A DNA stretch of 46,327 bases from a virus (Duplodnaviria > Heunggongvirae > Uroviricota > Caudoviricetes): positions 1-46,327 of IMG/VR virus record IMGVR_UViG_2802429244_000018; one strand, written 5' to 3'. Numbering within the stretch: position 1 is the stretch's first letter; every line of letters begins with the position of its first letter. Positions 9,001 through 11,023 of the stretch are shown here, one piece after another. The position numbers are program-made.

Positions 9001-11023
9001 AGTTTAAAGCAGCCCATACATTTGATTCGATATCCTTTTTCTTTGCTTCAAGTTTTTGTTGTAATGCGCAGATTTCATCAAACCTTTCTGTTATTTCGTG
9101 TTCTGCGTCAAACATGCATTTATCTTTGGTCGGAGTAGGGAGCAATATATCTTCGCCGTTGCCGTCTTTCCCATATGAATGCCATCCAACCCTTCTGCCA
9201 GATACAGTCAGATAAATTGAAGTAGAACGAACATCGCATGAGTAAAATGAACATCCCATCTTTTCAAGTTCTTCACTTATAGCTACCAACTTGGATGATA
9301 ACTGATCCACTTCCTCAGTTTTCTTTTTACCGCCAAACGCAATAACTCTGGCGTCAAGTGCAAGTTGGTTCTTTAACTTTGTTACTTCTTCAAGTTCAGT
9401 GAAAACCCCAGACTTAATTAAAGCGTTACGAGCGATTTCCTCTTTCATTCTCGTAGTTAAGCGGATTGATGACATATTAATTCCTCTCAAATAAGTGGTT
9501 TGCTGCCTAATTTCATTTTCTGGCGACCAACACAAGTCACACCCATTTCACTGCGTGGCTTGCGGTAGTAAATACGGTTCTGTTTACGCTCGACTTCATC
9601 TGCCTTCTTGCAGCGAAGGCTTCCGAGTGATATTGCTTTTTCAGAAAGGCTTAAACGCTTTCTCGTGCCTTTCTGAACAGGTTCCTCACTGTCTGTGCCG
9701 AAGATAGAATCAATGATGTTGCAGATGGCATCACGCTCGATAGCCAGCTTTCTGCGCCGCTCATGACGGCGAGTTTTGGCATTTCCTGCAAATGTTGATT
9801 TTCCGTACACGATTACCGTCATGATGTTTTCCTCATGTGAAATGGCTTTGGTGGTGATGCGACAGATGCTGATCTTCTGGTTGCTGTCGTTGCAGCTGCA
9901 ATTCACATCACCGCCAAACCCATCTCGTTTGGTATCTGTTTGCGCTTTGTCAGCGCCCCATCGAAGTTAAAGAGCCTGCCAATCTGTTCCGTTTGGCTTC
10001 CAGCGTCCTGCTGATGTGTTTAGTATCACCGCTAGTGGTATGTGCGTCAACACCGCCAGAGATAATTTATCACCGCAGATGGTTATCTGTATGTTTTTTA
10101 TATGGATTTATTTTTTGCAGGGGTGCATTGTTTGGTAGGTGAGGGATCAGAATTGCACTGTTTAGCAAGTTGTATCTATCAATTTTTCAATAAATACAAT
10201 TGGTTATGGTGTTATTAGGTGTGGGGATCGAGAGGCAAAGAAAACCCGGCACTGAGGCCGGGTTGTTATTTATGGAAAAACACTTCAAGTATTTTGGGGA
10301 TTGCTGGTATGAGTTGTGAGGATACGACCGCACCTACAACCCATAGAATTATCGAAGTTTTCGCGTCGCTTACGTCTGATTTGGTTGCATAATTCGAGCG
10401 CATGACAGCCAGGTCGGTTTTCATTTGCTGAACATCTTTTTCGAGTTCTTTCACTCTTTGAAGCACATCATCACCTCCGCCATTGCCGCCACCATGCCGT
10501 GAGTATGCATCATCAGTTGGATAGTGTCCAATTGGGCGAGATATGTTTTGATTTGGACGAAGCTGAGTAACCTTGTTATCTAAACTCATCGCGAACTGAT
10601 CCTGTTATCTTCACGTCAAAAAACGAACTTTTTACATCAATTACTTCGCCTTTCTCAGGATTAACCAGTGATGCTCTAACTTCGAATATCCCAGGCTTGA
10701 TAATTTTCACCCTTGGGAAGTTAATTCTCATAGAAGTTGATACGATGGTTTCTCCATCGTTGGCTTCTGCTACCGTAAAAAACTTATGGTTGGAGTACAG
10801 TTTTGTGTCAATTGGTATCGGTATTTCTTGAGCATTGAAAACCTCAATGCCTATGGAATATTTTTTTGTAGCCTTAAGGCCGATAAAAAAAGCGCCAAAT
10901 GACAGATCCACTTCATGGGAGTCTTTATCCATTTCATAGATAAGAACTGGAGTTACGGGGTTGCCTTCATCCATCGCAATCGGAATGATATAAGAAATAC
11001 GTTCTTTAATCATTTACGTGTTA

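Follow-up and report, generated by a model that had tools for sequence, protein, structure and literature searches.

A candidate two-gene phage-exclusion cassette behind the lambda-type cI repressor of a prophage

The window analyzed here is a stretch of 46,327 nucleotides (nt) from a tailed-phage (Caudoviricetes) record of IMG/VR (IMGVR_UViG_2802429244_000018, positions 1 to 46,327), and it carries two small genes in the slot between the cI repressor gene and the leftward operators that in phage lambda is occupied by rexA and rexB. Gene A (10576-11013, minus strand) encodes a protein of 145 amino acids (aa) that is putatively a variable sensor or adaptor, while gene B (10266-10589, minus strand) encodes a 107-aa membrane protein that is putatively a constant effector. 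With a confidence that stops somewhat short of even, we favor the view that A and B form a lysogen-expressed two-component phage-exclusion module of the abortive-infection type, in which a variable sensor is coupled to a constant membrane effector, the defense role being one that we infer from context. Two systems described as abortive infection, rexAB of lambda and bstA of BTP1, are housed in the same slot, as is hicAB in mEp234, and homologous pairs stand behind unrelated repressors, including those of epsilon34, Klebsiella, Photorhabdus and Pantoea. The soluble partner is variable and the core of B constant, up to the point where, between loci L015 and L016, the B cores are 100% identical, the A proteins 24% and the B tails 11%. 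Moreover, in 23 loci the same B core is joined by a second, unrelated soluble partner, a zinc ribbon, and the membrane halves of B, XhlA-like ones included, are swapped at a hinge that precedes a beta-layer trimer motif and one transmembrane (TM) helix. More tentatively, and as a possibility rather than a probability, the pair may belong to a modular family of abortive-infection systems that is widespread and linked to repressors, in which a trimeric, tail-anchored beta-layer effector would be wired through its tail to interchangeable, fast-evolving sensors (beta-sandwich or zinc ribbon), with families that fall outside the named defense systems.

Organization of the cassette

The first gene of the operon is a lambda-type cI repressor (11021-11734, minus strand; 237 aa, Peptidase_S24 at 5e-28 and HTH_3 at 4e-11). 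A first-pass annotation of this stretch had placed a 145-aa gene 7 nt after the cI stop, followed by a 107-aa gene overlapping it by 14 nt and an intrinsic terminator, and this arrangement was recovered: the ATG of A lies 7 nt (11014-11020) past the cI stop, A and B share 14 nt (10576-10589), and a hairpin (10243-10264, minus strand) begins one base past the B stop, with an 8-bp stem containing six GC pairs and followed by TTTTCTTT. This hairpin is the apparent equivalent of the terminator Timm and would mark the end of the cI-A-B transcript; the flanking DNA has its homologue in phage HK544, in the region annotated as Timm, and Timm is annotated at the equivalent position in mEp234 and CL707. 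The short gap and the overlap suggest that A and B are translationally coupled. No convincing promoter belonging to A or B themselves was found, and on the layout of the operon the pair is probably transcribed together with cI from pRM/pRE.

Both genes bear the mark of selection on protein. The ratio of nonsynonymous to synonymous substitution rates (dN/dS) of A is 0.07-0.12, as measured against its homologues in epsilon34 and in locus L039, and the C-terminal two thirds of B have a proportion of nonsynonymous differences (pN) of 0.07-0.17 with synonymous change saturated, so that the ratio comes to about 0.03-0.07. Over its first 38 codons, B evolves near-neutrally. A and the core of B are under purifying selection, which is strong in the core, and the dN/dS values rule out that the two are spurious open reading frames (ORFs) that arose by chance.

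Overlapping, probably translationally coupled genes would also suit a toxin-antitoxin (TA)-like addiction module that stabilizes the prophage, with B as the membrane toxin and A as its neutralizer, and this reading can point to hicAB in the same slot of mEp234 and to the plausibility of a small membrane protein as a toxin. It is nevertheless very improbable, as the order and sizes of the genes are atypical of membrane-toxin TA pairs and no TA family of Pfam or NCBIfam, of the HicAB type or otherwise, matches A or B. In any case, it largely overlaps with the abortive-infection reading and does not exclude it.

The two proteins and their relatives

The AlphaFold2 (AF2) model of A, based on 19 homologues, is confident (predicted local distance difference test, pLDDT, 86.7; predicted template modeling score, pTM, 0.82) and contains eight strands, and A is predicted to be a cytoplasmic all-beta sandwich resembling immunoglobulin (Ig) domains and carbohydrate-binding modules (CBM). 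The protein has no cysteine, an isoelectric point (pI) of 5.4 and no hydrophobic, signal-like segment at its N-terminus, and its best viral matches are uncharacterized phage proteins of 134-142 aa. Its close family is small: a word-indexed search gave 20 clusters, and a full HMMER search of 1.84 billion representatives with the family profile gave only 19 hits. Three long proteins hit by the profile (3360, 3267 and 743 aa) were discarded as spurious, being repetitive and beta-rich, matched over many stretches and of unrelated Pfam content. By iterative search of the genes upstream of B homologues a wider A superfamily was assembled, whose members are mostly 12-30% identical to the A of the window, with about the same range between most cassettes, and in which only Pro22 and Gly108 are invariant. 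Two invariant residues without a conserved polar set form a pattern that fits a non-enzymatic binding scaffold, not an enzyme. The first-pass annotation had recognized no catalytic motif in either protein, and none was found in A or B. Among 5426 complete Escherichia coli genomes A is present in 16, each time with at least 99% identity, and enteropathogenic E. coli (EPEC) E2348/69 is one of the carriers.

B is built from four parts, which recur in an alignment of 34 relatives: the tail, which is hypervariable and measures about 20-40 residues, is followed by a hinge, a conserved helix and a C-terminal hydrophobic helix. In the window (all minus strand) residues 1-31 (10497-10589) form the hypervariable N-terminal tail, which is predicted to be disordered and co-varies with the partner. 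Residues 32-41, HGGGNGGGDD (10467-10496), form the conserved Gly-rich hinge at the junction of the exchangeable halves, residues 42-73 (10371-10466) a heptad coiled coil with the beta-layer motif SNYATKSDV at its end, and residues 79-98 (10296-10355) the single C-terminal TM helix (SIILWVVGAVVSSQLIPAIP). Only one hydrophobic segment is present, at residues 79-97, with a mean Kyte-Doolittle value of 1.96 over 19 residues. The coiled coil and the single C-terminal TM helix had been described correctly in the first-pass annotation, whereas the Gly run, then assigned to the N-terminus, is a hinge (33-39) that comes after a 31-residue tail. An AF2 monomer model of B, which is of low confidence (pLDDT 55), shows one helix at residues 39-63 and another at 75-105, residues 64-74 forming the break between them, and no secondary structure at residues 1-38.

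The family to which B belongs comprises 89 clusters across Enterobacterales. Among the 34 relatives the hinge has the consensus [HY]GGGNGGGDD and the conserved helix reads MLQRVKxLEKDVQxxKTDxAVIKSNYATKxDV. The hinge is better conserved than a passive linker requires, and it also marks a recombination junction; more distant relatives of B retain GG-x-PP-x-D(G/D)-M at this place.

When the B-family profile was compared with all PDB sequences, the GCN4 fusion constructs 5apx, 5apz and 5apw were the sole hits below E=0.01. The beta-layer matches have E values of 5.5e-4 to 3e-3, and SNYATKxDV was aligned on LMATKDDI and ANMATKDDL of 5apx and 5apz (E 5.5e-4 and 1.3e-3). Hartmann et al. defined the beta-layer consensus as [aliphatic]-A-T-K-[polar]-[DE] and found every construct to be trimeric, and they noted the same motif adjoining the membrane anchor in DUF1640 membrane proteins (PMC4786415). 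Residues 60-73 of B (LAVMRSNYATKSDV) align with ITLMQANMATKDDL of the MATKDD alpha/beta coiled coils (Tcar0761, DUF1640) and carry the motif, likewise next to a membrane anchor, with a Tyr in place of the aliphatic first residue. The heptad hydrophobic positions of B (46, 49, 53, 56, 60 and 63), followed by Y67-A68-T69, fit the published c-beta-beta-beta-e register, and on the basis of this fit B is predicted to be a parallel trimer, tail-anchored in the inner membrane and with nearly all of its mass in the cytoplasm. Pfam DUF1640 and DUF3782 do not match B, and DUF1640 matches none of the 34 relatives either; the likeness is one of structural motif and is not evidence of common function.

This topology bears on whether A and B could instead act in superinfection exclusion at the inner membrane, in the manner of P22 SieA or HK97 gp15, blocking the entry of incoming phage DNA without killing the cell. 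A small membrane protein that is apparently expressed in lysogens would suit such a role, P22 has sieA in a comparable region, and some of the cassettes lie behind Arc/Mnt-type repressors. Entry block is, however, a distinctly unlikely function for the pair, since only about nine residues of B extend beyond the TM helix and A lacks a signal-like segment, which would leave nearly all of the mass on the cytoplasmic side. Nor does a hypervariable cytoplasmic partner sit easily with a function that stops entry from the outside.

The profile and structure searches proposed in the first-pass annotation gave the predicted beta-sandwich for A and otherwise little by way of names. Neither A nor B has a match in Pfam, NCBIfam or PADLOC, A not even at E<=1, and nothing above chance was obtained in these databases for 37 A-superfamily and 34 B-family members, with a single chance-level match per set in PADLOC-DB v2.0.0. 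A few A relatives show weak matches to DUF6941 (best E 0.0026-0.0043) that are below the cut-off. In PHROGs, A corresponds to phrog_5893 and B to phrog_6324, phrog_6136 and phrog_3556, all of unknown function. No paper in the literature searched, which did not cover the prophage-defense screen of Brenes & Laub 2025, names or tests either family, and the RefSeq accessions of A and B are absent from the main texts searched and from the DefensePredictor supplements. The claim that the cassette is undescribed stands for its function and fails for the pair itself: the 2008 genome paper of epsilon34 assigns genes 44 and 45 to the operon of the repressor, "like rexA and rexB", without database matches (PMC2629481), and both proteins have PHROG families. 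The existence of the gene pair is thus not new, while the family-wide architecture and a defense role would be.

Partner exchange, related systems and the proposed function

When viral contigs were scanned with the B profile, 80 loci were obtained, and together with loci fetched earlier 90 B-family genes were analyzed. The gene directly preceding B belongs to the A superfamily in 54 of the 90 and encodes an unrelated protein of 87-126 aa with two CxxC pairs (zinc ribbon) in 23 (L020, L028, L029, L037, L042, L044, L046, L048, L050, L058, L060, L067 and L077-L086 among the loci). Another type of gene precedes B in five. In the other eight no upstream ORF was called, in some cases as an artefact of the ORF rule used. 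The zinc-ribbon proteins resemble Lar only weakly (E 0.0055), the B tails that accompany them often carry DN[VI]xxxxFP, and several of their cassettes adjoin KilA-N/ORF6N antirepressor-like genes and not a repressor.

Some loci depart from the two-gene scheme. L061 (1113-1560) and L062 (478-1024) each have two tandem, tail-less B-like ORFs (64 aa and 77 or 110 aa) beside a regulator of the AraC family, with no A-like or zinc-ribbon partner and with neighbors that give no Pfam clue; the surroundings of the partner-less B-like genes in L061 and L087 were uninformative. L069 (2955-3851) encodes a 298-aa protein in which the short tail is replaced by an N-terminal, helical domain (about 190 residues) fused to the same Gly-acidic hinge, coiled coil, beta-layer motif and TM helix. 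The fusion of this domain in the place of the tail suggests that B receives its input at the N-terminal position.

The coupling of partner and tail can be followed quantitatively. Across 39 A-B pairs, A identity correlates with B-tail identity at r=0.77 (Mantel; partial 0.76 controlling for the core), whereas the correlation with B-core identity is weak (r=0.24). E. coli strains that share 99-100% identical A proteins and the same B tail differ in the C-terminal half of B, which in one case is XhlA-like, and the switch point between such variants is the hinge. At least five types of membrane helix were found after the conserved B helix. Swaps at the hinge together with the covariation define the exchange unit as A plus the B tail on one side of the hinge, and coiled coil plus anchor on the other, and from the pairing we infer that A docks on the tail of B. 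Docking is the simpler reading, given that the tail differs in type from one kind of partner to the next, DN[VI]xxxxFP being the tail that accompanies many of the zinc ribbons.

The XhlA-like halves deserve comparison with XhlA itself (PF10779, PBSX), which is likewise a short coiled coil with a C-terminal TM helix. XhlA is found in lysis cassettes, not behind repressors. The B of the window has no PF10779 match at E<=1, and the two of the 34 relatives that do match (best E 2.4e-4) both have a swapped C-terminal half; the E. coli variants with the same A, the same B tail and an XhlA-like C-terminal half are labeled XhlA family in RefSeq.

The pair has been found behind at least three classes of repressor. 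Genes encoding helix-turn-helix (HTH), S24 or Arc repressors account for 38 of the 58 distinct upstream genes, and for about 32 of 37 where the pair is of the A type. In Klebsiella, for example, the repressor is a 126-aa HTH protein, in Pantoea it is of the S24 type and N lies downstream, and two prophage regions of Photorhabdus asymbiotica have Arc-type repressors. In these two regions (FM162591; L006 3132-5371 and L007 3201-5371) the order is Arc-type repressor, A-like, B-like, KilA-N and hok/gef, with tail genes adjoining.

Such diversity is relevant to the question of whether A and B regulate the life cycle of their own prophage, by tuning repressor stability, induction or the timing of lysis. 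The apparent co-transcription with the repressor would be in keeping with this, XhlA-type holin accessory proteins offer a precedent for the B variants with an XhlA-like half, and 434 Hex and RexAB are reported precedents for non-defense roles in the slot. Yet co-evolution with the repressor or lysis genes would be expected of such a regulator, and the same B core occurs behind the different repressor classes; the cassette is missing from most phages of the same immunity, with other cargo in HK97, mEp234 and CL707 and with A as rare among E. coli genomes as stated above; and the extreme divergence of A better fits a target that is external and changing. Own-cycle regulation is for these reasons unlikely.

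This other, uncharacterized cargo was seen in a survey of the cI-to-Timm interval within this immunity, as the first-pass annotation had advised. Besides rexAB in lambda, the interval contains hicA-hicB and a hypothetical gene of 141 aa in mEp234 (L091, 1252-2382), a single 301-aa gene in CL707 (L092, 2643-3548) and gp49 and gp48 in HK97 (L093, 1171-2075); with bstA in BTP1, this supports the slot logic from which the annotation had argued. The study of BstA describes the interval between cI and N as a mosaic hotspot and notes that RexAB and BstA, two systems of abortive infection, are both located there and make common use of the strong lysogenic promoter (PMC8585504).

Compared with lambda RexAB, the cassette has the same layout, in that it is located downstream of cI and ended by Timm before OL, with a gene for a soluble protein followed by one for a membrane protein and apparent co-expression with the repressor. 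By sequence it is not a member of RexAB, because both sequence tests fail, the fold of A differs and B has one helix: A has no hit to RexA and B none to RexB in Pfam, PADLOC or PHROG (nor A in NCBIfam), RexA is described as a DNA-binding protein whereas A is an acidic predicted beta-sandwich, and the polytopic membrane protein RexB contrasts with B, which combines one C-terminal helix with a cytoplasmic coiled coil. The genes had been called unrelated to rexA and rexB from the outset, and this agrees with the lack of any Rex match. The anatomy, in which the cI strand encodes a soluble and a single-pass membrane protein and Timm closes the unit, is likewise upheld, and strengthened by the comparative data.

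True homologues are the genes 45 and 44 of epsilon34 (genes 40 and 39 of g341c), which are 78% identical at the nucleotide level, about 75% in the A protein, and lie directly after the prophage repressor; the repressor is a different one, and gp44 differs in the type of its C-terminal, membrane half. BstA of BTP1 resembles the cassette in that its gene comes directly after the one for the prophage repressor and has a terminator of its own, in an architecture conserved across genera (PMC8585504). It differs in consisting of one protein only, which has a putative KilA-N domain and localizes to sites of phage DNA replication. A and B lack a KilA-N match and have no homology to BstA. Sbash gp30/31, CarolAnn gp43/44 and RexABpp of P. 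putida are likewise prophage-expressed pairs of a soluble and a membrane protein that are reported to act as sensor and membrane effector, yet these actinobacteriophage and P. putida pairs belong to unrelated families, and their membrane partners are counterparts of RexB and not tail-anchored coiled coils.

It is also conceivable that the pair is a moron that uses a highly expressed slot for lysogenic conversion unrelated to phages, affecting envelope or stress physiology, colonization or virulence. The slot is simply well expressed, the cassette is present in EPEC E2348/69, and bstA was initially tied to virulence phenotypes (PMC8585504). Conversion of this kind is improbable in our view, as it is typical of conflict systems that the soluble partner is hypervariable and its families are interchangeable while the core stays constant, and the cassette is confined to prophage immunity regions across many genera.

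Under the phage-exclusion reading, the A-B complex would be inert in the uninfected lysogen, with A held on the tail of trimeric, membrane-anchored B, and in other cassettes the zinc-ribbon protein would take over the sensor role of A. Upon infection by a heterologous phage, A would bind a phage product, more likely a protein than DNA because of the fold and charge of A. Binding would then change the state of the B trimer such that the inner membrane is damaged or depolarized, and the infected cell would cease to support phage growth.

Several points weigh against this reading. No family member matches any PADLOC model, and neither the searched literature nor the DefensePredictor supplements give the families a name. 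The conserved part of B is the cytoplasmic coiled coil while its TM helix is exchangeable, and a pore-former might show the reverse. The AF2 model of B is of low confidence, the trimeric state is deduced from a motif of nine residues, and the correlation between A and the B tail could result from linkage alone, as the two are adjacent DNA and recombination occurs at the conserved hinge. Genes in the slot are not always defensive either: 434 Hex is reported to act on repressor cleavage, and RexAB, according to Thomason et al., affects the lysis-lysogeny switch as well.

If the defense role holds, an unnamed two-gene family would be added to the exclusion systems behind prophage repressors, one with an unusually readable organization that comprises a constant trimeric membrane module, an exchange hinge, a partner-specific tail and hypervariable sensors of two unrelated folds. 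Tail and partner swapping makes the coupling of sensor and effector directly testable, proteins of 145 and 107 aa are small enough to suit structural and genetic work, and the cassette occurs in well-studied material (EPEC E2348/69 and Salmonella phage epsilon34). If the pair is not defensive, it would still represent a conserved membrane complex, apparently expressed in lysogens, in many enterobacterial prophages. New defense candidates are common; the comparative case for A-B is coherent, and the system is easy to test.

The immunity region and other features of the window

The operators of the immunity region were read directly in the sequence. OL1 (10024-10040), OL2 (10048-10064) and OL3 (10068-10084) form, with a pL-like promoter (10050..10022, minus strand), the left boundary of the slot (10022-10084). 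On the other side of cI, OR3 (11745-11761), OR2 (11768-11784) and OR1 (11792-11808) match lambda operator sequences and accompany the divergent pRM and pR, the pR-like promoter being TTGACT-17-GATAAT (11782-11810). Counterparts of the features of the OR region are annotated in mEp234 and CL707, and the segment from cI to cro is 93% identical at the nucleotide level to the lambda-immunity phages HK97, mEp234, HK106 and CL707, in agreement with the earlier description of the immunity core as lambda-like.

To the left of pL, a 139-aa ORF (9487-9906, minus strand) has an arginine-rich stretch (AKTRRHERRRKLAIE) typical of N antiterminators, and its start is probably further in, at MTVIVYG. Further along the early left operon, a 340-aa ORF (7710-8732, minus strand) contains a long low-complexity helical region rich in Glu, Ala, Lys and Arg, and the near-identical LR-60 prophage has a counterpart that bears the annotation "TolA". 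Elsewhere within the prophage, a tRNA-Asn(GTT) is located next to a tRNA-Thr(TGT) (20665-20820, plus strand).

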